Source of the DNA: Kiloniellales bacterium
Lineage (GTDB): Bacteria; Pseudomonadota; Alphaproteobacteria; Kiloniellales; JAKSDN01
Assembly (NCBI GenBank): GCA_041617155.1
Contig: JBFJPL010000005.1
Coordinates: forward strand, 2,564-66,563
Reading direction: 5' to 3'
DNA length: 64,000 bases
The notes beneath the pieces are model-generated. The model did not search any database. It was given only the letters and a program-made list of their open reading frames with translations, and had not been told where the DNA came from. Position numbers and translations under genes: made by a program. Below, one piece after another: positions 39,157-57,800 of this stretch (the stretch's first letter is position 1; every line of letters begins with the position of its first letter).

Positions 39157-40359
39157 ATGGCAAGGGCCCGCCCGACCGCATCGGACGGAGGCGACGAGGC
39201 AAGTGCGGCAATCTGGCGGCAGGGATTCCGGCCTTTCTTCCTGGGCGCGGCCTTGTGGTCGGCGGCGGCACTGGCGCTTTGGATCCCGGCCCTGACCCAC
39301 GGTCTGGTCCTGCCCAGCGGTTTCGGCGCGGCGGCCTGGCACGCCCACGAAATGCTGTTCGGTTTCGCCGCCGCGGCGATCGCCGGCTTCCTCTTGACGG
39401 CGATCCCGAACTGGACCGGCCGCCTGCCGATCCAGGGCACCCGGCTCGCCTTTCTGTTCACCCTGTGGGCCGCTGGCCGCATCGCCGTCGCCACCTCGTC
39501 GCTGGTCGGCGAGTGGCTGGCCGCGACAGTGGACGTCGGCTTTCTCGCGACCCTCTGCGCCATGGTTCTGCGCGAGATCCTGGCCGGCCGGAACTGGCGC
39601 AATCTGCCGATGGCTGGCGTGCTGGCCGTGCTCGCCCTGGCCAATCTCACAACCCATCTGGAGCCGCTCGGCCTCGCGGACACCAGCGACCTGGGCCAGC
39701 GCCTGACGATTGCCACCGTCGCGTTCCTCATCACCTTGATCGGCGGCCGGATCGTGCCGAGCTTCACCCGCAATTGGCTGAACAAGCGCAGCGAAACCGC
39801 GTTGCCGAGGACTTTCGGCCGGCTCGACCGCGCGACCGTGGCGGTCACGGCCTTGACCGGCCTTGGCTGGACCCTGCTGCCCGAGTCGGCGTTGACCGGC
39901 GTCCTGGCGCTTGTGACCGCCGCCGCCCAAGGTCTACGCCTTTCCGGCTGGCGCGGCCACAAGACCGGCGCCGAGCCTTTGGTCTGGGTGCTCCATCTTG
40001 GCTATGCCTGGCTGCCGATCGGCTTCGCGCTACTAGGTGTCGCGATCCTGACCGATCTGCTGCTGCCAAGCGCCGCCTTCCACGCCCTGACGGCAGGGGC
40101 CATGGGAACCATGATCCTGGCGGTCATGACGCGCGCCACCTTGGGCCACACCGGCCGGGCGCTGACCGCCGGTCCGGCGACGCTCGCCATCTACGCCCTG
40201 GTCACGCTCGCGGCCCTGCTTCGCCTGCTCGCGCCGCTCTTCGGCGGCGCGGAACTGCCGGTCATGGCCGTGGCCGGCCTGTCGTGGATCGCCGCCTTCG
40301 GTCTTTTCGCCACGGCCTATGGTCCTCTCCTCATTGGTGCCGAGCACCGCAGCGATTAG
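39157..40359 (+). CDS. nnrS: NnrS family haem/copper membrane protein
   Basis: The start is trimmed to ATG 39157. It reads GFRPFFLGAALW...AWHAHEMLFGF...LTAIPNWTG, and 12 hydrophobic segments are visible. Confidence 0.85.
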   Translation: MARARPTASDGGDEASAAIWRQGFRPFFLGAALWSAAALALWIPALTHGLVLPSGFGAAAWHAHEMLFGFAAAAIAGFLLTAIPNWTGRLPIQGTRLAFLFTLWAAGRIAVATSSLVGEWLAATVDVGFLATLCAMVLREILAGRNWRNLPMAGVLAVLALANLTTHLEPLGLADTSDLGQRLTIATVAFLITLIGGRIVPSFTRNWLNKRSETALPRTFGRLDRATVAVTALTGLGWTLLPESALTGVLALVTAAAQGLRLSGWRGHKTGAEPLVWVLHLGYAWLPIGFALLGVAILTDLLLPSAAFHALTAGAMGTMILAVMTRATLGHTGRALTAGPATLAIYALVTLAALLRLLAPLFGGAELPVMAVAGLSWIAAFGLFATAYGPLLIGAEHRSD

Positions 40360-40564
40360 GGCTCCTACGCACAAACGCGGCTCAAGCCGCGGCGCCTCGC
40401 AATTTCCCTTTGGCGGGGGACCCGGATAGGCCAGCCAAGCCTACGCATGGCACGGGTGTGCCAAATGCGGACAACGGAAATGGCCTATCGACCTGCCCCT
40501 TCGCCGGGCCGGGGCTAGACCCTGGGGCAATGACCGGTGCGATCGGAACCTCCCCGTCTCAGGG

Positions 40565-40948
40565 CTACTCGGTCAATACCTTGAGTATGTCGTAGCGGCT
40601 GACCTGCCCGACGAGCTTGCCGTCGCGGAGGACCGGGAAGCGACGGAAGTGGCTGTCGAGAAAATGCTGGGCCGCGCTCACCAGGTCCTGACCCGCGTCC
40701 AGGGTTGTCACGGGCGTGCTCATGAAATCGCGTACCGGTCCGCCCCAGTCGTCGTGATATCGTGTCGAAAAAACGATCTTCAGGCAGTCCTTCTTGGACA
40801 GCATGCCGACCAGGTCGCCGTCGGTGTCCACCACCGGTGCGCCGGAAATCCGTTTGTCGAGGAGAATCCGGATGGCCTCGTGAATGTTCATGTCCGGCGT
40901 GAAGGTAACCAGCCGAGTCGCCATGATGTCGGCGACGGTCCGAGTCAT
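40565..40948 (-). CDS. CBS-pair domain protein, last gene of the nqr-type operon
   Basis: 127 aa. The start ATG 40948 overlaps the nqrM stop (ATGA). Two CBS motifs are present (ISGAPVVD, RFPVLRDGKLVG). Confidence 0.75.
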   Translation of the reverse strand: MTRTVADIMATRLVTFTPDMNIHEAIRILLDKRISGAPVVDTDGDLVGMLSKKDCLKIVFSTRYHDDWGGPVRDFMSTPVTTLDAGQDLVSAAQHFLDSHFRRFPVLRDGKLVGQVSRYDILKVLTE

Positions 40949-41100
40949 CGCTCCTTCCCGGGCCGGCAGAGGGGACAGGCCTTGAGCACAGCGTCTCCGC
41001 CGCACGACCCCTTGAGCGGGCCGCGGCCGAGCAGGACCCCCGCGCCGAGTCCGAGGATCGCCAGCACGATCACCGCGAAGCTGAGCAAGAACAGCGTCAT
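40945..41100 (-). CDS. nqrM: (Na+)-NQR maturation protein NqrM-like, 51 aa (below ORF-track cutoff)
   Basis: Hand translation gives MTLFLLSFAVIVLAILGLGAGVLLGRGPLKGSCGGDAVLKACPLCRPGKER. It has one TM helix, then GSCGG and CxxC, which is the pattern I recall for NqrM/DUF539. ATGA overlaps occur at both ends. Confidence 0.65.
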   Translation of the reverse strand: MTLFLLSFAVIVLAILGLGAGVLLGRGPLKGSCGGDAVLKACPLCRPGKER

Positions 41101-42059
41101 GAAGCGCCTCCCACCGCGAATCCGTTGACGTCCACTTCCTCCAGTCCGCCCGGGCGGCGCATCAGGAACAGCGCGCTGGCGTCGCGAGCCTTGAGCAGCG
41201 GGCGGGCGGCTTCCGGCCCCAGCACCATGGCGGCCGTTGCCAGACCGTCCGCAATCAGCCCCGTCGCGGCCAACACGCTCACCGAGGCGACCCCATTGTT
41301 TACCGGCGTCCGGGTACGCGGGTCCAGAACATGACCATAGCGCCGACTACCAACGGCATAGCCCTGCGCGCCGTCGCCCGACGTCGCCAAGGCGCGCCTG
41401 TCTGCTTCGACGATTCGCTGAAGCATGGTCGATCCCGGCCGTTCGATACCGACACGCCAGGGCCGTCCCGATGGGTGGCGGCCCCGGGCCGCGACCTCGC
41501 CGCCCAGTTCGACCAGGAAATCGAGCCCGTCGAGCGCCTGCACGATCTCGTCCAGCGCGTGTCCCTTGGCGATGCCGCAAAGGTCGAGGCTCAACCCGGG
41601 GCACGCCGTTCTCAGCACATCACCGACGATGCTCAGATCGCGATACCGGCCGCTCGGGCGGGCAGGCGAAATGGCGGGCGGCCCGAAGCCGTAGCGCCTG
41701 CCCAGCGGCGCCGTGGTCGGGTCGAAGGCGCCGTCGCTGTCCCGGGCCAGCTCCAGCGCCGCGCGCGCAACGAGACTTGTCTCGCGCGACACAAAGGTGC
41801 AGCCGGCGGCGTTGAAGCGGGCCAATTCGGAGCCGGAGCGATAGGGCGACATGAGGGCATCAATGCGCGCCACGACCACTTCCAGCCGGGCCCGCGCCCG
41901 GGCCGCCTCGCGCGTGTCGGGCAGCACGAGCCGCCACGCCGAGCCGAAGGCGGGGCCCGTGTGGACGCGCACTTCGGCCGCGCGTGCCGCGGCGGGCAAG
42001 ACGTTCAGCAACGCCGCGCCGCCGGCTATTCGCAGAAGCTCCCTTCGCGTGATCGTCAT
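41097..42059 (-). CDS. apbE: FAD:protein FMN transferase (ApbE family), Tat signal
   Basis: 320 aa. It has an RRELLRIAGGAALL signal, GIAKG, and HVLDPRTRTP motifs. It abuts the nqrF stop. Confidence 0.85.
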   Translation of the reverse strand: MTITRRELLRIAGGAALLNVLPAAARAAEVRVHTGPAFGSAWRLVLPDTREAARARARLEVVVARIDALMSPYRSGSELARFNAAGCTFVSRETSLVARAALELARDSDGAFDPTTAPLGRRYGFGPPAISPARPSGRYRDLSIVGDVLRTACPGLSLDLCGIAKGHALDEIVQALDGLDFLVELGGEVAARGRHPSGRPWRVGIERPGSTMLQRIVEADRRALATSGDGAQGYAVGSRRYGHVLDPRTRTPVNNGVASVSVLAATGLIADGLATAAMVLGPEAARPLLKARDASALFLMRRPGGLEEVDVNGFAVGGAS

Positions 42060-43277
42060 TCAGCCTCCGAAATCGTCGTACAGGATATTCTCGCGCGGGA
42101 CGTCCAGCGTATCCAGCAGGGCGCGTGCCGCCTCGATCATGAGGGGCGGGCCGCACAGATAGTATTCGCACGCCGCCGGGTCGGGATGCGCCTTCAAATG
42201 GTTGCGGTAGACGACGTCATGGATGAACCCCGTCTCACCGTCCCACGAGTCGCCGGGCGCGGGGTCGGACAGCGCCACATGCCAGGAAAAATTCGCGTGT
42301 TCCCGCGCCAGCCGCTCCATATCGTCGGCGTAGTAGAGATCGATCAACGCGCGCGCGCCATACCAAAAGCTGATCCTGCGCGACGTCCTTTTGTATTCGA
42401 GCTGGTCGAACACATGCGCGCGCAGCGGCACCATGCCGACGCCGCCACCGATCAGGACGATCTCGCGGTCCGTCTCCATGACGAAGAAGTCGCCGAACGG
42501 TCCCGACACCGTGACCGCGTCGCCGACCTCGAGACCGAACAGGTAGGACGACACCACCCCGGGCGGCGCGTCCGGCCTGCTGGCGGGCGGCAGGGCGAGG
42601 CGGATGTTGAGCAGCAGCGCGTTGGTCTCCCCGGGGTGGTTGGCCAGCGAATACGCCCGGGCAACGGGGGCCTTGCACCGGGCCGTGAGTCTTCTAAGGC
42701 CCAAACGCGTCCAGGCATCTTCGTGCGCGGGGTCCACGGCGATCTCGGCGAACGGCAGGGTGAAGCGCGGCGCGGTGACCTCCACGTATGATCCGGCCCG
42801 GAAACTCCTGGCCTGCCCCTCGGGCAGGGCCAGCACGATTTCCTTGATCAGCGGCGCGAGGGATCGAGTCCGGCTGACGGTGCATGACCAGGTTTCCGCG
42901 ACCAGCAGGTCGGCGGCCACGGTGACCGCGAGGTCGTCGCGCACCACCACTTGGCAGGCGAGGCGGACGCCGTTCGCGATGTCGACTTCGCCTAGCGTGG
43001 CCCGCTCGATCGGCAGAACGTCCCCGCCACCGGTTACGGTCACCCGGCACAAACCACAGGTGCCCGCCCCGCCGCAGCTTGTGGGCAGATGCACGCCGCC
43101 ATGTTCCAGTGCCGCCAGCAGTTTTTGTCCGAGGTCGGCGTCCAGGACACGCTCGCCGTTCACGGTGATGTGCGCGAGGCCCCCGGGCACCAGCACGGCC
43201 CGGGCGACCAATACGACGAAGGCCAGCACCATGATCAGTCCCGTGAACACCGAACTGCCAAGAAGGATCTCCGTCAT
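42060..43277 (-). CDS. nqrF: NADH:quinone reductase (Nqr-type) subunit F
   Basis: The start is trimmed to ATG 43277. It has an N-terminal TM helix, the 2Fe-2S motif SCGGAGTCGLC...LACQ, the FAD motif RAYSLAN, and an NAD-binding GGGVGM region. Confidence 0.9.
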   Translation of the reverse strand: MTEILLGSSVFTGLIMVLAFVVLVARAVLVPGGLAHITVNGERVLDADLGQKLLAALEHGGVHLPTSCGGAGTCGLCRVTVTGGGDVLPIERATLGEVDIANGVRLACQVVVRDDLAVTVAADLLVAETWSCTVSRTRSLAPLIKEIVLALPEGQARSFRAGSYVEVTAPRFTLPFAEIAVDPAHEDAWTRLGLRRLTARCKAPVARAYSLANHPGETNALLLNIRLALPPASRPDAPPGVVSSYLFGLEVGDAVTVSGPFGDFFVMETDREIVLIGGGVGMVPLRAHVFDQLEYKRTSRRISFWYGARALIDLYYADDMERLAREHANFSWHVALSDPAPGDSWDGETGFIHDVVYRNHLKAHPDPAACEYYLCGPPLMIEAARALLDTLDVPRENILYDDFGG

Positions 43278-43284
43278 CGTCGCC

Positions 43285-43887
43285 TCATCCGAACTCCAGC
43301 CCGCCGAAAACGGCAAACCCCATCGACATGAAACCGGTCAGGATGAACGCGAGCCCGAGGCCGCGCAGCCCGTCCGGCACGAGAGTCTCGTCGATCCGCT
43401 CGCGCAGGGCGGCGAGCGCCCATACGGCCAGCGCCCACCCCAGCCCGGAACCCAAGCCGTAGATCACGCTCTCGGAGAACTCGTAGCGGCGCTCGACCAT
43501 GAACAGGCTGGCGCCGAGGATGGCGCAGTTGACGGTGATCAGCGGCAGATAGATTCCCAGCGAGCGGTAGAGCCGGGGGAAGTGGCGATCGAGGACCATC
43601 TCGAGGATCTGCACTGTGGCCGCGATGACGCCGATCGAGGCGATCAGCACCAGGAAGCTCAGATCGACCTCGCCCAGCCCCAGCCACGTCAGCGCGCCGG
43701 GCCCGAGCAGCCAGGTGAAAAGGAGGTTGTTGACAGGGACGGTGATCGTTTCGACCACGATCATGGCGAGGCCCAGCCCGAACGCGGTCTCCAGATGACG
43801 GGAGACCGCGAGGAACGTGCACATTCCAAGGAAGTAGGCGAGCGCCAAATTGTCGGTGAATACCGATCGGACCAGTAGTTCGGTCAT
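43285..43887 (-). CDS. nqrE: Nqr-type subunit E
   Basis: 200 aa, starting [29 protein letters not shown]. The conserved Cys residues in GMCTFL and VNCAIL are present. ATGA overlap with nqrD. Confidence 0.9.
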
Positions 43888-44534
43888 CGCGGCACCTCGC
43901 CGCCCTGTTCTCCCGGGGCCGGCTCGGCCTGTTCCGGCCGAATGGTACGTATCGCCCACACCAGCAGTCCGAGCAGGAAGAACGCGCTCGGCGGCAGCGC
44001 CATCAATCCGAGCGGCGTGAACCAGCCGCCATCCGCGGCGGCCGGCAAAATTGTGACGCCCAACAGCGTTCCCGCACCGAAAAGCTCGCGCACGATGCCG
44101 ACCGTAACCAGGATCAGGGCATAGCCGAGGCCGTTGCCGAGACCGTCGAGCAGGCTCGCGCCGGGGGGATTCTTCATGGCGAAACCTTCCGCGCGGGCGA
44201 GCACGATGCAGTTAGTGACGATGAGGCCGACAAACACGCTGAGACGCTTGCTCATCGCGAACATGTAGGCTTGCAGCATTTGGTCCACGACGATGACCAG
44301 CGAGGCAATGATCGTGATCTGCACGATGAGCCGGATCGAGCGGGGAACATGGTTGCGAATCAGGCTGATCAGGCCGTTGGAGAGGGTGAGCACGAAGATC
44401 AGCGCGGCGCTCATCACCAGGGCGGTGGCCAGCGACGTGGTCACCGCAAGCGCAGAGCAGATCCCGAGCACCTGAAGCGTCACCGGGTTGGCGACGAGAA
44501 TGGGGTCGACCAGGGTGCGGGTGCGATCGCTCAT
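43884..44534 (-). CDS. nqrD: Nqr-type subunit D
   Basis: This is the last 216 aa of track ORF 43884..45245, reading [12 protein letters not shown] and [17 protein letters not shown] overlap with nqrC. Confidence 0.9.
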
Positions 44535-45271
44535 CGCCCCGCCTCCGACTTGAGGCGATCGAGATACGGGCCGTAGCCGTCGGGGCCGAGCCAGAAACGC
44601 AGTAGGTTGGTGACGCCGGTGCCGGTGCGGGTCGCACCGGAGATGCCGTCGACCTCGTGCACGCCGGTGCCGGCGCCCTTGACCACCCCGATGCGGATCA
44701 CGCCGTCGGCATCGGCCACCTGCCTGCCCGGCCAAAGGGCCTGCCACGCATCTTCCTCGATGCGCGCGCCCATGCCGGGGGTCTCGTCCTGTTCGTAAAA
44801 GGTCAGCGCGGCGACGGTGTTCAAATCGGCCTTCAGGGCAAGATACCCCTTGAGCGTCGATTGATAGCCGGTTCCGCGCACCGGCAGGACCACCAACCTC
44901 AACGCGCCCTCCTCGCGCAGTTCGAAGACGGTGGCCACGTTCTCGCGGCTGCCCAGCCCCGCACGGTCGCGGTCGACCGGCAGCTCGGTGCTCGTGCCCG
45001 GGTCGCGGTCCACATCGGCGCCGGAGGCGAGATCCACCAGACGCATCTCCGGAACGCCCGCGCCCAGGATTTCCAACATCCCCAGCATGCGCGCCACCTT
45101 GTCCGCCTGCCGGTTGGCGTCCTGCAGCGGCCTCAGCGTCACCGCCGTGGCCGAAACCACCAGCGAGCAAACCAGGGCAACCAGGAGCGCGACGCCGACG
45201 GTCTTCGCCGTGCTGTCGTTGGGCAGGGCAAGGAAGCCCCGCCACCAGACGAGCGGATTGGCACTAGCCAT
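44531..45271 (-). CDS. nqrC: Nqr-type subunit C (FMN-binding)
   Basis: The start is trimmed to ATG 45271. It has one N-terminal TM helix and the FMN phosphoester site ISGATRTG. Confidence 0.85.
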
Positions 45272-46049
45272 GGCGGGGCCTCCAGGCGAGCGCCCGGTCC
45301 AGAAGCGGCGCGAACAGCCCGCCCAGCAGAGCCGCGAACACCACGCCGTCGGGCTGGTCGGGATTGGCGAGGCGGATCGCGACAATCAGCGCGCCGACCA
45401 GCATGCCCAGCAGCCAACGGGCACCACTGCCGGCGATCGCGCCCTCGGGCGCCGCAGCGAGGAACAGGATACCGGCTGAGAAGGCACCGAGGCCGGGATG
45501 CTGCCACCACACGGGGTCGCCCATCAACAAACCCGCCGCCGCAGCGCCGGCCACGGCGCCCGCGGCGACCTGCCAGGCGAGCGAGCCTCTCAACATCAGG
45601 ATAACGGCCCCGGGCAGGCAGGACAGGGCGAACACGTAGTCGGGCGACAGCGCGAGGATGCCTTGCGCCTCGAACCCGCCCTCGGGGAAGGAAAAGATGG
45701 CGAATGCCAGGCCGATCAGCGCCGGCGGCAGTATCGCCCTGCCGCCGAAGATCTCGCGCCCGAAGACGGCGCCGAAGCTGAGCGCGAGCACGGCCCCGCC
45801 CCAGCCGACCGGCCCTGGCAGCATCACGACGAACAACACGGCGAAGGCAGGCAGCCCGGAGCCGAGCGGGCGTCCCGTCCGGCGCGCGAACAGGGCGGCC
45901 CAGGCATAGGTGATGCCGAGCGCCAGAGCGAGCAGAAGCAGCCGCTGCATCGCCACCTCCGTGCCGTCGCCAAACAGCCGCACGAGGAAGGGCAGCGTCA
46001 GCGCCAGCAGCCTGAGGCGGTCATCACTGTCCGGATCGGTCATGGTCAT
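45264..46049 (-). CDS. nqrB: Truncated NqrB/RnfD-family membrane subunit (261 aa, no SGAT FMN site)
   Basis: The start is at ATG 46049 (MTMTDPD). Blocks FGAVFGREIFGG and IRLANPDQPDGVVFAALLGGLFAPLLD align by eye with NqrB. There is an 8-nt overlap with nqrC. Confidence 0.75.
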   Translation of the reverse strand: MTMTDPDSDDRLRLLALTLPFLVRLFGDGTEVAMQRLLLLALALGITYAWAALFARRTGRPLGSGLPAFAVLFVVMLPGPVGWGGAVLALSFGAVFGREIFGGRAILPPALIGLAFAIFSFPEGGFEAQGILALSPDYVFALSCLPGAVILMLRGSLAWQVAAGAVAGAAAAGLLMGDPVWWQHPGLGAFSAGILFLAAAPEGAIAGSGARWLLGMLVGALIVAIRLANPDQPDGVVFAALLGGLFAPLLDRALAWRPRHG

Positions 46050-46423
46050 CGCGTGCCAACTTAAGGTCGGGATGAAACCCTGACAACGGTTGTGCCTCAA
46101 TCGCCTGGGCTTGTCTCGGGGTCGCGGGCAGTCTGCGGTCGCCTTGACGAACAACGCCTGGTCATTCGACGGCTCAGTGGACAGCTTCCTGGGGCAGCCC
46201 ATTCCAACGACAACCTGATCGGTGAGTGGCACGTCGTCCGCGCCGATTGCCACGGCCATTTGCGAAGCTTCGAGCAATGATCGTTGAACAGTACCGCCGG
46301 GCGGAGGCTTTGGCTGTGCCTTCGCCATCGGGAACCAGCCGATCAATGAATCGGTTCGGGGAAACAATGGCTCAAAGTCGGACATCGGCCTCGGAGAGTC
46401 CGAAGCTGCGGTTGAACTGACGT

Positions 46424-46459
46424 GGGGCAAACATGGCAAAAATGGCAAAAATGGCAAAA
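46424..46459. repeat. Tandem 9-mer atggcaaaa, three perfect copies plus one degenerate
   Basis: ggggcaaac (46424-46432) is followed by atggcaaaa at 46433, 46442 and 46451. It lies in the divergent nqrB/cytochrome intergenic region. Confidence 0.9.
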
Positions 46460-46558
46460 GCAGCCATGATTGGACGTCAGCGTATTCTGCTTTCGACTGC
46501 GGGCTCATGGCGCACTATGATAATTCCATCGACGAACTAGAATGCCGCACCATTCGTT

Positions 46559-47833
46559 ATGGGAATGCTCATGGACACTTTTTCGTGTGGCGCGCGTGCC
46601 TTCCAAATCCGGAACGACGTGCCGGAGCTGACGGTGAGCAAGCTGTATGACCTCTTCGCCATTGCCAACTCATGGAGACATCTCGGCGGGCTCGTTTCGA
46701 TTGCATTTGTTGTTTTGCTGTTGGCCGGCTTAAGTTCGCCGCTTGCCGCGGCGGGTCTCAATGGCGACAAGGCCTACACCGAAGGGCCACAAGTGTGCGG
46801 CCGTTGCCACACGGAAGCTTTGGAGCAGTGGCTCGCTCACGGCCACAGCCGGAAGCTCGCCATCGGCGGGCCGGCGCTCAAGGCGCTCGACGGCAAATTT
46901 GGCCTTTTCGGGAATGCGCGAGACGGCGGATTCCGCCTCCCGGACCACGACAAAGATGCCTATAACTGGGACAACGTGGCGCTGATCATCGGCGCAAGCA
47001 AGCGATGGAAGACGCGATTCCTGGCCAAAGACGGCTACATCATCACCAAGGGCGGGAACAACCAATATAACTGGGCGGACGGTTCTTGGGTCGACTACCA
47101 CAAGGACGAACAGAAAAAGTATAGCTGTGGCAGCTGCCATACCACCGGCTATCGGGAGGGCGGCAGCGCTTTCGGCGCAAAGCGAATTCCTGGCACGACC
47201 GCCGGTCCCATGCCCGGCATCGCGGGGGACTGGGCCCAGTTCAACATCACCTGCGAGGCCTGCCACGGACCGGGCGCGGCTCACGCCGCGAAGCCGAGCA
47301 AAGTCAACATAATAGTGGACAATTCGGCGCAGTCATGCGGCACGTGCCACATCCGCGGATCGGACCCGAACACCATCATCGCGGAGGGCGGCTTCATCCG
47401 CCATCACGAACAGTATCCCGAGTTCGCCAACAGCCCTCACAAGGACCTTGCCTGCACGACCTGCCACCAACCCCACGACAGCCGCTCGCAGGGCATGAAG
47501 GTGAGCGCCGCGAACACCACGGTCTGCGACACCTGCCATGGCGCGCAGAAGGAGCTATTCGCCGGCAGTCCGATGCAAAAGGCCGGTGTGACCTGCGTGG
47601 ACTGCCACATGGCAAAGGTCACGAAGTCCGCGGTTGCAGTGGGGCCCTATGAGGGCGACGTGCGCACCCACGTCATGCGGATCAATCCCGCCGCCGATTA
47701 CGTGATGTTTACACCAGACGGCAAAGCGGCCAAGAATGCTATCAGCTTGGAATTTGCCTGTTTTCGGTGCCATGCCGCGGCCAGCAAGGCGGAGTTCGCC
47801 AAGATCAAGGACTTCCATGCCATCGGCAAATGA
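46559..47833 (+). CDS. Octahaem c-type cytochrome, periplasmic or membrane-anchored
   Basis: Eight CxxCH motifs are present: CGRCH, CGSCH, CEACH, CGTCH, CTTCH, CDTCH, CVDCH, CFRCH. The N-terminus has a hydrophobic segment, LVSIAFVVLLLAGLSSPLAAAG. The start is uncertain (ATG 46559 or GTG 46634). Confidence 0.85.
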   Translation: MGMLMDTFSCGARAFQIRNDVPELTVSKLYDLFAIANSWRHLGGLVSIAFVVLLLAGLSSPLAAAGLNGDKAYTEGPQVCGRCHTEALEQWLAHGHSRKLAIGGPALKALDGKFGLFGNARDGGFRLPDHDKDAYNWDNVALIIGASKRWKTRFLAKDGYIITKGGNNQYNWADGSWVDYHKDEQKKYSCGSCHTTGYREGGSAFGAKRIPGTTAGPMPGIAGDWAQFNITCEACHGPGAAHAAKPSKVNIIVDNSAQSCGTCHIRGSDPNTIIAEGGFIRHHEQYPEFANSPHKDLACTTCHQPHDSRSQGMKVSAANTTVCDTCHGAQKELFAGSPMQKAGVTCVDCHMAKVTKSAVAVGPYEGDVRTHVMRINPAADYVMFTPDGKAAKNAISLEFACFRCHAAASKAEFAKIKDFHAIGK

Positions 47834-48393
47834 CCCGCGGCGGCAATGCATGATGACGCGGCGGTCCTTGGGGCCCCAGCTGCCGGGCAGGCTGCAGTCC
47901 GCCGTGGCCCGGTCGTCGATCAGCGCCTGGTTCATCTCGGTCGCGAAGGAGCCCGGGCCGATGCCGTTGACCTGGAGGCCCATGGGCGCCCAGTCGGCGC
48001 ACATGCCCTTGGTCAGCATCTTGACCGCACCCTTGGCCGCGGTGTAGGGCGCGATGGTCGGCCGGCCGACCTCGCTCATCAGCGAGCAGATGTTGATGAT
48101 CTTGCCGGCCTTGCGCGCGATCATTCGCCGCGCCACCAGGAACACGCCGGTGAGATAGGTCTCGATCACCGCCCGCCAGTCGGCCTCGGGAAACTCGGCC
48201 AAGGGTTTGCGCACCTGGATCCCGGCGTGGTTGACGAGAATGTCGCTCGGCCCCTGCCCCTCCTCGATCTCGACCACGCCGGCCTCGACCGCGGCCCCGT
48301 CGGTGACGTCGAAGGCGACCCGCTCAGCCGCCACCTCGGCCTCGCACAAATCGGCCACGGCCCGCCCCGGCTTGGCCTCGTCACGCCCGTTCA
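47834..48393 (-). pseudogene. Short-chain dehydrogenase/reductase remnant, truncated at both ends
   Basis: The middle of track ORF 47555..48511 reads ILVNHAGI...INICSLMSEVGRPTIAPYTAAKGAVKMLTK...VNGIGPG (SDR NAG and YxxxK motifs). There is no N-terminal GxxxGxG Rossmann segment and no normal C-terminus. Confidence 0.6.
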
Positions 48394-48914
48394 GCACCAC
48401 CGCCGCCACGCCGACCATGGCACCCGCGGCGACCTGCCATGGCAGCAAGCCGCGCAACATCAGGACCGCCGCCCCGGGCAGGCAGGACATCGCGAACAGG
48501 GGATCGGGCAACAGCGCGAGAATACCGCGCGCCTCGAACTCGACCTCGGGGAAGGGGAAGATGGCGGCCGATCAGCGCCGGGGGCAGTATGGCCCTGCCG
48601 ACGAAGATCTCGCGCCCGAAGACGGCACCGAAGCTCAGCGCGAGAACGGCGCCGCTCCAGGCAACCGGCCCAGGCAGCAACGAGACGAAGGTTATGGCAA
48701 AGGCAGGTAGCCCGGGGCCCGGCGGACGCCCAGCCCGACGCGCGAACAGGCCGGCCCAGGCATAGGCGATGCCGAGCGCCAGGCCGAGCAGCAGCAACCG
48801 CTGAACCGCCGCTTCCGTGCTTTCGCCATAAAGCCGCACGGCCAGAGGCGGCGCCAGCGCCAGCACCCTGAGGACGTCATCACGGTCGGGATCGGCCATG
48901 GTCGTCGCGCGCAT
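48394..48914 (-). pseudogene. Frameshifted partial copy of the short nqrB
   Basis: MRATTMADPDRDDVLRVLALAPPLAVRLYGE...FGAVFGREIFVGRAILPPALIG parallels 45264..46049. An 8-nt gap near 48566 relative to the intact copy breaks the frame. Homology resumes in another frame (PDPLFAMSCLPGAAVLMLRG) and ends at the SDR remnant. Confidence 0.7.
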
Positions 48915-49049
48915 CCCGCGTTAGCGTACGGCCGGGATAACGCACTGACAACGGTCGTGCGTCGGTCGGCTGGGCCGGGGCCGCAGGCCGTCCAAGGTCG
49001 CCTTGGCGGGCTATGTCCGGTCGTTGGACGGCCCCGTGCACAGCTTCCT

Positions 49050-49265
49050 GCCGCGGGCCCTGCTTCGCTTGCCCGCGCCGCTCTTCGGCGGCGCGGAACT
49101 GCCGGTCATGGCCATGGCCGGCCTGTCGTGGATCGCCGCCTTCGGTCTTTTCGCCACGGCCTATGGCCCGTTCCTGACCGGCGCCGCCCGTCGGGTCGAC
49201 TAACGCCGGTGGTCACATAAGACGCCTGAGCCGCGGGCTCCCTCGTTGCAGTTCTGGCGGGTGAT
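49050..49265 (+). pseudogene. Orphan copy of the nnrS 3-prime end plus its downstream sequence
   Basis: Track ORF 49003..49203 ends LLRLPAPLFGGAELPVMAMAGLSWIAAFGLFATAYGPFLTGAARRVD, compared with the nnrS C-terminus LLRLLAPLFGGAELPVMAVAGLSWIAAFGLFATAYGPLLIGAEHRSD. DNA similarity continues past the stop (gagccgcgg...). Confidence 0.65.
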
Positions 49266-49321
49266 CCGGGGAAGCCATGAACGGACTTGGAGTTCTGTCA
49301 GCGCAAAGACGCGCGATGTCA

Positions 49322-50224
49322 TTAGCTGTCGAGGAGGTGCTCGACGAACCAGTCGCGGGCGACGCCGCTTGCCTCATCGAAGTCCTTCACATAGGCGTCG
49401 AAATGTCCGCCTTTGAGCAACACGAGCTTCTTGGGCTCGAGCGCCCGTTCGTAGGCGGCGATCGCCTCGTCGGCCACGGTCAGATGATCCCCGGCTGCGA
49501 CCACCATGAGCAGCGGTGTCGGGCTGACATATTCGATGTAGGCGCCCGGTTCGTACTCCATGAACATCTCGACCGAGCGAAGCGTCACCTCGTTGCGCCA
49601 CGCCGGCGCCCGCAGTTCGGCCGTTTCGGTAAACCATTCGAAGGAGTCCGGGGTCGGCAGCGCACAGGGCACGTTGGGATCGTCCGACACCACGGCGATC
49701 ATCTGTGGAGCCTGCCCGGCAAATCGTGCCTGGCGATCGGTATTGAACATGCCCTGGACCGCCGCGATGAGATCCGCGCGAATGAGGCGCCGCGCGTTTC
49801 TGTGGCCGCTGATCAGCGGCACCTGCGACACGACGCACTTTACCCGGCGGTCGATCGCGCCGATCACCAGAACATGCGCGCCGCTGTAACTCGAGCCCCA
49901 GATGCCGATCCGATCGTCATCCACTTCGGCGAGACCGCTCGCATAGGTAATGGCATCCCGGTAGTCGCGGATCTGCTGCCAAGGGTCGATCTCCTGGCGC
50001 GGTTCGCCATCGCTGGCACCGAAGTTTCTGTTGTCGAAGACCAAGGCGCCGAGGCCCGAGGCGGCATAAACCTCCGCGTAGGTGTCGAGATAGTTCTCTT
50101 TCAGAGCCGAAAATCCGTGGGCCATGACCACGGTCGGAACCGACCCGCGCACGTCGTCGGGTAGATACAGCCAGCCCCGCAACGTCACGCCATCCTCGGA
50201 CTTAAACTCAATATCCCTTCGCAT
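49322..50224 (-). CDS. Alpha/beta-fold hydrolase
   Basis: 300 aa with the nucleophile elbow GSSYSG. The N-terminal pattern EFKSEDGVTLRGWLYLP is typical of dienelactone/CocE-like hydrolases. Confidence 0.8.
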   Translation of the reverse strand: MRRDIEFKSEDGVTLRGWLYLPDDVRGSVPTVVMAHGFSALKENYLDTYAEVYAASGLGALVFDNRNFGASDGEPRQEIDPWQQIRDYRDAITYASGLAEVDDDRIGIWGSSYSGAHVLVIGAIDRRVKCVVSQVPLISGHRNARRLIRADLIAAVQGMFNTDRQARFAGQAPQMIAVVSDDPNVPCALPTPDSFEWFTETAELRAPAWRNEVTLRSVEMFMEYEPGAYIEYVSPTPLLMVVAAGDHLTVADEAIAAYERALEPKKLVLLKGGHFDAYVKDFDEASGVARDWFVEHLLDS

Positions 50225-50386
50225 CTCCCCTCTCCCGTTGCTAGCTGAAGATGATGCCTAAGGTACCACAGCGCCTTTGCCTTCATAGTCGATAGTCCGT
50301 GCGCTTCACTTGCCGAGTGAGCCCGAAATATCGAACTCATGCAGCGACGGCCCTGGTCACGCCATGAGCCGCTTGCCGCTTGCTGT

Positions 50387-52027
<1,641 letters not shown>

Positions 52028-52031
<4 letters not shown>

Positions 52032-53230
52032 GACGCGACCCCGGCGGTTGCGCGTGCCGCGCCGCCTTCCGGCCGCGGCAGGAAGCGGTCGATGCCGAAC
52101 GGTCGGGCCGCCTCCAAGGTCTCGCCGGTCAGGACGTAATGGCTGACCAGTTTGGCGGTCGCGGGGGCCAAGAGGATGCCGTTGCGGTGGTGCCCCGTCG
52201 CCAGCACCAGGCCCTCGACCCCGGCGCTCCGCGGCGCCGGCCCCAGGATCGGCGCGTCGTCGCGGCTGGTTGGCCGGAAACCGACCCAGAACTCCTCGAT
52301 CGGCAGCTCCTCGATGCCGGGCACGGCCCGCCAGGCCGCCTCCAGCACCGCATAGACGCCGCCGGCCGTCAGCCGGTCGTCGAAGCCCTTTTCCTCGACC
52401 GTGCCGCCGACGATCAGGCGGCCGTCGAGGCGCGGCACCATGTAGATCTTCGGCGCCCACAGTACGTGCCGCAGCAGGGGCTCGGCCGGGTCCATCCTGA
52501 GCGCCAGCATCTGGCCCTTGACCGGGCGCACCGGCGGTCGGGCGGCTTCGGGCAGCCCGTCGATCTCGCGCGACCAGGCGCCGGCGGCAAGCACCACCAC
52601 ATCGGCCGGGCGAAAGGCGTCGCCAATGCGCAAACCCCGCACCCGGCCGCCCTCGGCCTCGACGGCAGCGACCTCGGTGTCCTCGTGTAGCCGGCCACCG
52701 GCCGCCAGAAACGCGCGCTTCAAGGCCTCGCCCAGCTTGCGGTTGTCGACCTGGTGGTCGTGCGGCGAGAAGACCGCCGCGGCGGTGCCCGGCCGCAGGA
52801 ACGGTTCGCGCCGCCGCGCCTCGGCGCCGCTCAGCCATTCGAGCTCGATGCCCAGACCGGTCTGAAACTCGTAGCCGAAGCGCAATTGCCCTACATCGTC
52901 GCGGGTCAGCGCGGCAACCAGGGTGCCATCGGCGCGGTAGTCGACCGCCATGCCGGCGGCCGCTTCGAGCTCCCGCGTGAAGTCGGGCCAGAGCGCTTGG
53001 CTCCACTGGTTCAGCGCGAGCAGACGCTGCTCGCCGGGCTCGGTCTCGACGCCACCCGCCAGCATACCGGCGGCCGCCCAGGTTGCGCCGTGCCCCGCCT
53101 TGCCCCGGTCGTAGACCTCGACCGGGCAGCCGGCCGCCGCCAGGCGCCAGCCGATCCCCAGGCCGCACACGCCCGCGCCGACAATGGCGACGCGCGGCAG
53201 CTTGGCAGTCGATGATGAAAGTGGACCCAT
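52028..53230 (-). CDS. thiO: Glycine oxidase ThiO
   Basis: 400 aa with an FAD Rossmann motif VAIVGAGVCGLG. It is the first gene after the TPP riboswitch. Confidence 0.85.
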
Positions 53231-53237
53231 AACAGCA

Positions 53238-53322
53238 GGGCTCCCTTCGCTGGCATAATCCAGATCAGGTTCGATGGGTTTGCTCTCAGCCGGCCTTCTG
53301 GCCCGGCACCCCAGCCATAACG
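53238..53322 (-). promoter_or_regulatory. TPP (THI-box) riboswitch
   Basis: The minus strand reads ggggtgccgggccagaaggccggctgagagcaaacccatcgaacctgatctggattatgccagcgaagggag. This has the canonical GGGGUGC...CUGAGA...ACCUGAUCUGGAUAAUGCCAGCG core, directly upstream of thiO. Confidence 0.85.
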
Positions 53323-53597
53323 AACGTCATCTATCATATAATGACGACCCGGCCCAAGGCCAGCACTGTGGCGCCCTGGCAAACCACCGGCTCGACGGCG
53401 AATGTAATGTGAAGCTACGGCGGGTAGTATCTCCGTCTGAAATCGAGAGACGGCAAGCGACCTGTTGCAGCTTCTCATGATCGCTGGCACGAATGTCGGC
53501 ACTCGGATAGCAAACCAGTCGTCCGACTGCGGCCACCGGTCAGGCTGGTGATAGTCAAGAACGGACGCACGAATAGTCAAGGAGCTGCATGACAAAA

Positions 53598-57233: not shown

Positions 57234-57262
57234 TTAACGCCGCGCCGAAAGCATCCTATAAT
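57234..57262 (+). promoter_or_regulatory. Candidate sigma70-type promoter (TTAACG-17-TATAAT)
   Basis: ttaacg lies at 57234-57239, a 17-nt spacer follows, and a perfect tataat lies at 57257-57262. It sits about 100 nt upstream of the CBS gene ATG. Called on sequence pattern only. Confidence 0.35.
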
Positions 57263-57365
57263 GCCAGTGGCATTGGCAGCAGCCGGTGAAATCGCCGGGC
57301 GAGCCGGACAAGAGGCGATAGTTGCGCCACGGACCGGTCCCGGCGTCCTGAGAGGAGGAAGGCGC

Positions 57366-57800
57366 ATGAAGGTTCGAGACATGATCGCCGCGAAAGGCGA
57401 CAAGGTGGCGATCGCCCAGCCGGACGCGACGGTCGATACCGTGCTCCACCGGCTCAAGCTCGAGGGCATCGGCGCCCTGGTGGTGAGCAAGGACGGCGAG
57501 ACGGTGAGCGGTATCATCTCCGAGCGCGACATCGTGCGCGGCCTGCCCGACCACGGTGCCGCCCTTCTCGAAATGCCGGTCTCGAAGATCATGACCAAAG
57601 AGGTTAAGACCTGCGCGCCCGAGGCCAACGTTCAGGAAATCATGTCCGAGATGACACGCAGCCGGTTCCGCCACATGCCGGTGGTCAAGGACGGCAAGCT
57701 GTGCGGCATCATCTCGATCGGCGATGTGGTCAAGAATCGCCTGGAGGAGCTCGAGGCCGAGACCCACGTCCTGCGCGACTACATCGTCGGACGCAGCTAG
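57366..57800 (+). CDS. CBS-pair domain protein
   Basis: The start is trimmed to ATG 57366, preceded by GAGGAGGA. Two CBS motifs are present (GALVVSKDGETVSGIISERD, HMPVVKDGKLCGIISIGD). Confidence 0.8.
   Translation: MKVRDMIAAKGDKVAIAQPDATVDTVLHRLKLEGIGALVVSKDGETVSGIISERDIVRGLPDHGAALLEMPVSKIMTKEVKTCAPEANVQEIMSEMTRSRFRHMPVVKDGKLCGIISIGDVVKNRLEELEAETHVLRDYIVGRS

Follow-up and report, generated by a model that had tools for sequence, protein, structure and literature searches.

The locus and its question

How did pieces of nqrB and nnrS come to lie broken and joined together a short way from intact copies of both genes? The question arises in a window of 64,000 nucleotides (nt) from a Kiloniellales bacterium (GenBank assembly GCA_041617155.1, contig JBFJPL010000005.1; all positions below count from the first letter of this window). 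A preliminary description of the window had taken the pieces for what is left of a tandem duplication, or of a circular intermediate, of the neighbouring NqrA-less NQR operon.

We find that window positions 47912-49236 are a recombination scar, a pseudogene mosaic in which three gene fragments stand end to end: a piece of a short-chain dehydrogenase gene (SDR'), the first part of nqrB with its upstream region (nqrB'), and the last 49 codons of nnrS. Direct repeats of 111 nt, one within intact nnrS and one in the nnrS tail relic (Table 1), enclose 8.7 kb. Within this interval are SDR', nqrB', an octahaem cytochrome gene and the NqrA-less NQR cassette that is now resident. On the right, beyond the second repeat, nnrS has an alternative 3' end, nearer to the nnrS end of a relative. 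The scar is a new instance of a known feature type and as such ordinary genomic debris. It would also be a rare physical trace of an NqrA-less NQR cassette, which spans several phyla, moving without a visible recombinase, and would preserve part of an earlier cassette allele beside its replacement.

Three fragments and their joints

The region was compared with the window and with the whole draft genome by blastn and a repeat search. Positions 48397-49050 match 45533-46191 at 78.4% nt identity over 668 columns with 23 gap positions (E 1e-160), and this copy takes in 517 of the 786 nt of nqrB (66%), counted from its start, and ~145 nt upstream of it. The N-terminus of nqrB' is 9 nt longer (MRATTM...), an 8-nt deletion at 48566/48567 shifts the frame, and the gene is truncated after about codon 172; read through the frameshift, its product is 74.7% identical in amino acids (aa) to resident NqrB. 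The preliminary description had thus seen rightly a copy of the first two thirds of nqrB at about three quarters protein identity, a frame-shifting 8-nt gap near 48566 and a parallel to the nqrB upstream region. Frameshift and truncation leave no full-length NqrB-like frame (~261 aa in the cassette family), and Pfam, NQR2_RnfD_RnfE included, finds no family in the 177-aa nqrB' open reading frame (ORF).

The distal part of the upstream piece, compared alone (48977-49059 vs 46118-46200), is identical at 61 of 83 positions (E 2.5e-11); no other 83-mer in the genome exceeds 48/83. These 83 nt of distal flank are common only to the fragment and the resident copy, and none of 23 other cassette loci matches the upstream region of either copy beyond -62 or -100. 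The flank suggests that nqrB' and resident nqrB share a locus history, without a simple parent-copy relation.

Positions 49056-49186 match 40212-40342 in nnrS at 92.4%, ungapped. The similarity is not of the low-complexity kind. The relic keeps its stop codon (49201-49203) at the same position as in intact nnrS, which ends at 40359. The switch to nnrS through its stop was therefore described correctly, with the joint now placed at 49056-49059; the ~60 nt of further similarity that had been claimed shrink to ~33 nt of weak similarity after the stop (19/33).

At this joint, J3, the two ends of the block stand in reversed order: 48915-49059, the counterpart of ~46050-46200, abuts 49056-49203, the counterpart of ~40212-40359. 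The head-to-tail junction proposed earlier is confirmed: here DNA from upstream of nqrB meets nnrS within the gene, at a short microhomology. Overlaps at the joints are short, GC-rich microhomologies of 4-8 nt. No inverted-repeat pair flanks the scar among the pairs listed in the repeat search.

The third fragment, SDR', had been overlooked, and it directly adjoins the nqrB copy. It derives from the interior of a gluconate-5-dehydrogenase-like short-chain dehydrogenase gene; by blastn, the middle of an intact gene for 255 aa on another contig of the same genome (C185:3623-4130) matches it at 87.4% nt identity. In the protein alignment it lacks ~47 N-terminal codons, which hold the Rossmann motif, and ~45 C-terminal codons, and carries a 12-nt deletion; the Pfam match to adh_short covers profile positions 25-193 only. 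Its closest protein is the genome's own P0241 (86.8%), and the intact proteins P0241 and P0242 are 85% identical to each other over the region that matches SDR'.

The arrangement in further assemblies

The source genome is a draft in 234 contigs, with 95% completeness and 2.3% contamination, and a chimeric or collapsed metagenome contig that merges the reads of related strains could produce a mosaic. Besides the draft state and the contamination, this explanation is favoured by pairs of contig ends that resemble strain variants at 92-96% identity, and by a second contig that terminates inside the nnrS relic. It is opposed by the assemblies themselves. A look-up of the called 331-aa NqrB product led to contigs in eight Logan assemblies and in two further assemblies at NCBI. 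One contig, L036 (GCA_041579315.1, a different metagenome-assembled genome (MAG)), equals window 39264-50542 at 99.885%, ungapped, with 13 single-nucleotide polymorphisms (SNPs); the other, L037 (GCA_041606315.1), equals 44778-49201 at 99.93%, ungapped, with 3 SNPs, and is the one that ends inside the nnrS relic. Both come from other samples and cross all three joints in the same arrangement, and the SNPs by which they differ from the window mark them as separate assemblies of related populations. The joint overlaps of 4-8 nt are far below assembler k-mer sizes, and the pieces have indels of their own. An assembly artefact, which the preliminary description had asked to be checked, is thus very unlikely.

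Of the 13 SNPs against L036, seven lie in the 1.5-kb stretch that separates the cytochrome gene from the hydrolase gene (binomial p=6e-4), an enrichment that would fit unconstrained DNA. L037 has two adjacent base differences, at 48394 and 48395, just beside the SDR'/nqrB' joint. An exact look-up of the cytochrome protein found no record. Elsewhere in the draft, contig ends overlap others at 92-96% over 0.3-1 kb (C192/C216, C198/C229, C104/C194 and others), which suggests that strain variants were co-assembled.

Relationship of nqrB' to resident nqrB

Judged by its sequence relationships, nqrB' is not a decayed copy of resident nqrB. NqrB' is 86.6%, 84.6% and 83.9% identical to three metagenomic proteins, the first being P0009, compared with 74.7% for resident NqrB, which 29 database proteins surpass in closeness to NqrB'. 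Likewise, its coding nt identity is 82.7% to the resident gene, 88.6% to L029 and 88.0% to L028, two metagenomic contigs that carry the cassette. In a protein tree of 71 taxa NqrB' is the sister of P0009 (support 95/85), with the longer branch of the two (0.16 vs 0.03), and in a DNA tree of eight taxa nqrB' pairs with L029 (support 92/93). The approximately unbiased (AU) test on the DNA of these eight taxa rejects a clade of fragment and resident (p=0.0054). The fragment is not the sister of the resident gene, as a tandem duplicate of the neighbouring copy would be.

Uneven divergence across the joint

The pieces on the two sides of J3 differ from their resident counterparts to very different degrees. 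Relic nnrS has 3/111 mismatches to resident nnrS, then 16/37 (Fisher p=7e-9), then 14/33 after the stop, and the upstream piece adjoining J3 has 22/83 mismatches to the resident copy. A divergence of 3% vs 27% across one joint means that a single duplication event cannot explain both sides.

The closest relative with context, L046 (ENA ERZ23492215 scaffold_4), serves as a reference for the nnrS end. In the same two segments, window nnrS has 12/111 and 12/37 mismatches to the L046 orthologue, and the last 37 nt of the relic have 9/37 mismatches to that orthologue vs 12/37 for the resident end. The end of relic nnrS thus looks the more ancestral-like, and the resident end would be derived. The 111-nt repeat, for its part, carries the lineage-specific bases of resident nnrS. 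Given these bases and the step from 3/111 to 16/37, the 111-nt repeat is therefore best read as a tract of recombination or gene conversion.

These figures bear directly on the simplest account, in which the resident ~6-kb block from nnrS tail to nqrB was duplicated in situ or circularised and the second copy decayed. We regard that account as distinctly unlikely. The head-to-tail order and the microhomology at the joint are what it predicts, the 83 nt of distal flank are common only to fragment and resident, the nnrS repeat is 97% identical with lineage-specific states, and the same-genus genome G001 has a true tandem duplication at nnrS; furthermore, the AU test on protein does not reject the clade of fragment and resident (p=0.083). 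The account fails on the DNA test (p=0.005), on the 29 closer database proteins and on the divergence within one 840-nt relic, which is 3% for the nnrS repeat, 17% for nqrB, 27% for the upstream region and 43% for the nnrS end. Furthermore, the joint lies 2.9 kb from the end of the resident block, with the cytochrome gene and the SDR fragment between, and identical 6-kb tandem repeats are unstable and unlikely to last until ~20% divergence. The preliminary description therefore keeps its topology. Its reading of the fragment as an eroded copy of the resident operon does not hold against the DNA test, the contrast of 3/111 vs 22/83, the ancestral-like nnrS end and the unrelated SDR piece.

Another account, a patchwork of short foreign fragments taken up from a related species (~80-90% nt) and stitched in by illegitimate recombination, would make the head-to-tail order incidental. 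All three pieces are indeed about as diverged from their resident homologues as the orthologues of another species (SDR' 87% nt, nqrB' 83% nt; P0241/P0242 85%), microhomologies at the joints are short, and nqrB' groups with genes of other organisms. Random capture would not, however, be expected to yield two of three fragments that are the two ends of a block 3 kb away, nor a 111-nt nnrS piece with the lineage's own derived bases, nor a distal upstream flank common only to the resident copy. A search of the 95%-complete genome for a Ku end-joining gene gave none. A foreign patchwork is about as improbable, in our judgement, as the decayed duplicate.

The cassette and nnrS in other genomes

Cassettes of the form nqrB-C-D-E-F-(apbE)-51aa-CBS occur at 65-87% aa identity in MAGs (L049-L065 and L030-L034) labelled Alpha-, Beta- and Gammaproteobacteria (Lysobacterales included), Gemmatimonadota and Acidobacteria. 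The neighbours of the cassette are different in each of 21 other loci, none with a recombinase nearby, which bears out the proposal that the module is mobile. In none of the 21 does nnrS lie within 10 kb in any orientation, and the cytochrome gene is likewise never within 10 kb; it was thus in this lineage that cassette and nnrS became neighbours. The proximity of cassette and octahaem cytochrome gene would stem here from rearrangement and not from a conserved functional linkage.

The same-genus genomes G001-G003 (L017, L021, L025) have a more distant cassette (NqrB 33%, NqrF 55%, NqrD 72% aa), and versions in unrelated MAGs are 80-87% identical to that of the window. The window's cassette type looks horizontally acquired relative to the genus. 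At 68-74% nt identity and in fragmented form, G001-G003 are too distant for recent history. A minor variation within the cassette concerns apbE: no match lies between nqrF and CBS in L034, L054, L055, L057, L058 and L059, and L034 has a 39-aa remnant.

L046 is 89% identical in nt over 11.2 kb, from a HAD hydrolase gene to cysNC-cysD-nnrS. After nnrS it has a transglutaminase-core gene, whose orthologue in the window genome is on contig C162, and then an nnrS relic of its own (L046:12198-12374). This relic consists of two pieces that are 94-96% identical to L046 nnrS and equivalent to window 40008-40076 and 40244-40359, with an internal deletion and a frameshift, and its identity breaks at the same ...GCCTATGG point as that of the window relic. 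The window relic begins 148 nt ahead of its stop codon and the L046 relic 350 nt ahead of its own, and the sequences downstream of the two relics are unrelated. G001 has a tandem duplication nnrS-X-nnrS'-X (L016:5386-8382, G001:C39) with copies 74-89% identical and the middle of the relic lost; X is a CBS protein that is found at window 57261-57800 and that in G003 directly follows nnrS. L047 and L048 have yet other neighbours downstream of nnrS, so that the gene after nnrS differs per relative. The cytochrome orthologues of G001 and G002 adjoin a gene that sits on contig C6 in the window genome. In L046, L047, L048 and G003 no cassette but other DNA follows nnrS, and no nnrS-hydrolase empty site was found. 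A DNA search of 127 genomes across the order found no further nnrS relics at its sensitivity, which missed even the G001 relic. On these comparisons, the DNA downstream of nnrS is a rearrangement hotspot.

The relics of the relatives would also suit an ancestral arrangement in which a full-length second nnrS stood downstream, next to a divergently transcribed cassette of the nqrB' type; the joint would then be a deletion that removed intergenic DNA and the first 380 codons of the second nnrS, other deletions having taken most of the cassette. The L046 relic keeps more of nnrS and its identity breaks at the same point, as for an old copy that was partly gene-converted; G001 too has a second nnrS remnant, and the 3' end of the relic and the DNA downstream of it are old and diverged. 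Against such a deletion, no examined genome has nnrS beside the cassette in either orientation, the DNA downstream of the window and L046 relics is unrelated, and G001 shows a plain tandem duplication of nnrS and its neighbour, not an old pair of paralogues. A non-functional relic is, moreover, unlikely to survive without selection since before the split from L046. We consider the deletion account unlikely, if less so than the two accounts weighed above.

A proposed composite history

In our preferred reading, which we hold with moderate confidence, the history is composite: the scar would stem from cassette turnover at a rearrangement hotspot, with a joint of the duplication or circle-integration type that involved an older cassette allele. 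The order and mechanism that we infer are these. A block reaching from inside nnrS to ~145 nt upstream of nqrB would have entered, or been duplicated, at the nnrS 3' end, either by tandem duplication or as a circularised block through a Campbell-type homologous crossover in the nnrS tail. Its entry would have made the joint of nqrB upstream region and nnrS, and displaced the original nnrS end, left as the relic. The cassette at entry would have been a different allele, F, whose nearest known relatives are the metagenomic contigs L028 and L029. Cassette R, the present one, would later have taken the place of most of F, accompanied by the cytochrome gene and an SDR piece; the illegitimate SDR'/nqrB' joint would be one end of that replacement. 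The 111-nt nnrS repeat would be the recombination tract itself or have been homogenised by gene conversion, and the fragments would have been joined by illegitimate, microhomology-mediated recombination. The differing post-repeat sequences appear to be explained more readily by the integration form than by a tandem duplication of the DNA now present.

Several points weigh against this history. It requires at least 3-4 events, which cannot be ordered from one genome, and no intact F-type locus, empty site or circle was found in the relatives examined. The shared distal flank suggests that the F and R alleles are not fully independent, and the protein AU test leaves the clade of fragment and resident standing. 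Unique substitutions by codon position number 5/6/8 on the fragment branch and 6/5/6 on the resident branch; these counts neither demonstrate relaxed selection nor set nqrB' apart from functional genes. The three assemblies, furthermore, seem to go back to related metagenome data, and one assembler may have built them all.

A broader reading, which we offer only as a tentative and rather doubtful proposal, is that the nnrS 3' end is a recombinase-independent cargo-exchange site in this alphaproteobacterial group. Circularised or duplicated blocks with an nnrS 3' piece would integrate by homology, restore nnrS and leave the old tail behind. If so, the NqrA-less NQR cassette would be swapped between related genomes, and the relics in the window genome, L046 and G001 would be repeated products of one process.

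Relation to known recombination products

A GC-rich microhomology of 9 bp suffices for tandem-duplication join points in E. coli (PMC11111574). The scar resembles these RecA-independent joints (PMC11111574) in its head-to-tail flanks, its GC-rich microhomologies of 4-8 nt and the lack of a recombinase or repeat element. Unlike them, it has joint sides of different age, a duplicated gene that is not the sister of its neighbour and a post-repeat sequence that is no copy of the resident one, and no second full copy is left in it.

In Campbell-type integration, circular DNA enters by a single homologous crossover, as do suicide plasmids or excised circles. The scar has these features in common with it: 111-nt copies of the homologous segment flank the insert in direct orientation, one of them completes an intact nnrS, the other is truncated and followed by the displaced original 3' end, the putative circle-closure joint adjoins the truncated copy, and the sequences past the two repeats differ (16/37 and 14/33 mismatches). 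The scar departs from that model in that no circle, donor or empty site was observed and the tract, at 111 nt, is short. The presence of an older relic inside the insert means that one or more additional events must have occurred.

Homology-facilitated illegitimate recombination reportedly occurs in natural transformation, in the work of de Vries and Wackernagel. The scar would share with it one end anchored by homology, in nnrS or the cassette, incoming DNA that is moderately diverged, and another end at a microhomology of 3-10 nt in an unrelated gene (SDR'/nqrB'). The process differs in that it normally deletes the anchor region and does not duplicate it. Its name is also found in PMC6382021.

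The scar differs from islands of the 3'-end type in lacking both an integrase on the contig and a tRNA gene, and in relic left boundaries that differ between genomes (148 vs 350 nt). Some genomic islands insert at a gene's 3' end and bring a substitute for that end with them. Shared with these are the intact target gene, the cargo and the displaced 3' fragment in direct orientation, and cargo that varies by relative (the cassette here, a transglutaminase-like gene in L046). Matches to the tyrosine recombinase family PF00589 lie on C72, C30 and C120 and none on C5, the contig of the window, in a search that did not include serine recombinases; the rve transposase profile has no match in the genome, and window 30000-64000 has no tRNA gene. 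An integrase-mediated site-specific island is rejected, there being no tyrosine recombinase on the contig and no common att boundary between the genomes. Ku-dependent end joining is rejected for want of a Ku gene. Dispersed repeat families of ~275 nt, in many copies at 87-97% identity (e.g. C4:39073-39347, C10:62646-62919, C9:31880-32153, C99:9834-10107), may be akin to miniature inverted-repeat transposable elements; none of the listed copies is on C5, and an origin of the scar from such an element is rejected.

Table 1. Features in and around the scar, with window coordinates, strand and basis of assignment.
Feature	Coordinates	Strand	Basis
nnrS, intact, 400 aa	39157-40359	+	Pfam NnrS
Left-hand 111-nt direct repeat, within intact nnrS	40212-40322	+	blastn, Pfam NnrS
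Resident NqrA-less nqrB-C-D-E-F-apbE-(51 aa)-CBS cassette	40565-46049	-	Pfam; L036 gene calls; 80-90% aa vs cassettes elsewhere
CBS gene of the cassette	40565-41005	-	Pfam; followed by apbE, nqrF, nqrE, nqrD with nqrC
Resident nqrB, short, 786 nt	45264-46049	-	Pfam
Resident counterpart of nqrB' and upstream region (5' two thirds of nqrB and 150 nt)	45533-46200	-	blastn
Multihaem (octahaem) cytochrome c gene	46559-47833	+	Pfam
SDR' pseudogene piece	47912-48407	-	87.4% nt to intact gene on C185
Joint J2, SDR'/nqrB', overlap CCGCCGCC	48397-48407	.	Three-way alignment of mosaic and both parents
nqrB' pseudogene	48397-48914	-	blastn; protein and DNA trees
Copy of nqrB upstream region	48915-49059	-	Repeat search, alignments
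Joint J3, nqrB upstream/nnrS tail, head-to-tail; overlap GCCC (imperfect GCGG.GCCC)	49056-49059	.	Three-way alignment
Right-hand 111-nt repeat, nnrS codons about 383-420, truncated at the joint	49056-49166	+	3 mismatches to 40212-40322
Alternative nnrS 3' end (last 12 codons, stop in register) and ~33 nt	49167-49236	+	Nearer to L046 orthologue
alpha/beta hydrolase gene, then thiE, thiG	49322-50224	-	Pfam

Function and neighbouring features

The scar is probably non-functional: no function is expected because nqrB' is frameshifted and truncated, SDR' is without its cofactor-binding motif, and a scan of 47800-49400 for promoters and terminators found no such sites. Public annotation of L036 and L037 nevertheless calls a 341-aa hypothetical protein (47846-48871, +), which runs antisense across SDR' and nqrB', and a 66-aa ORF with weak NnrS similarity (49003-49203, +). 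The two gene calls look like artefacts of annotation in GC-rich DNA, by-products of the dead fragments.

A palindrome-like motif, CACAACCGTTGTCAG on the operon strand, stands ~30-45 nt upstream of nqrB in both copies (window 46080-46094 and 48945-48959). It is largely conserved in eight aligned cassette loci, the relic copy having one mismatch to the consensus, and may be an operator candidate.

The hydrolase gene beside the scar is on the same strand as thiE and comes after it. Further upstream, a thiamine pyrophosphate riboswitch (Rfam RF00059, 70 bits) lies at window 53225-53323 on the minus strand, in front of thiO/thiS-thiG-thiE.

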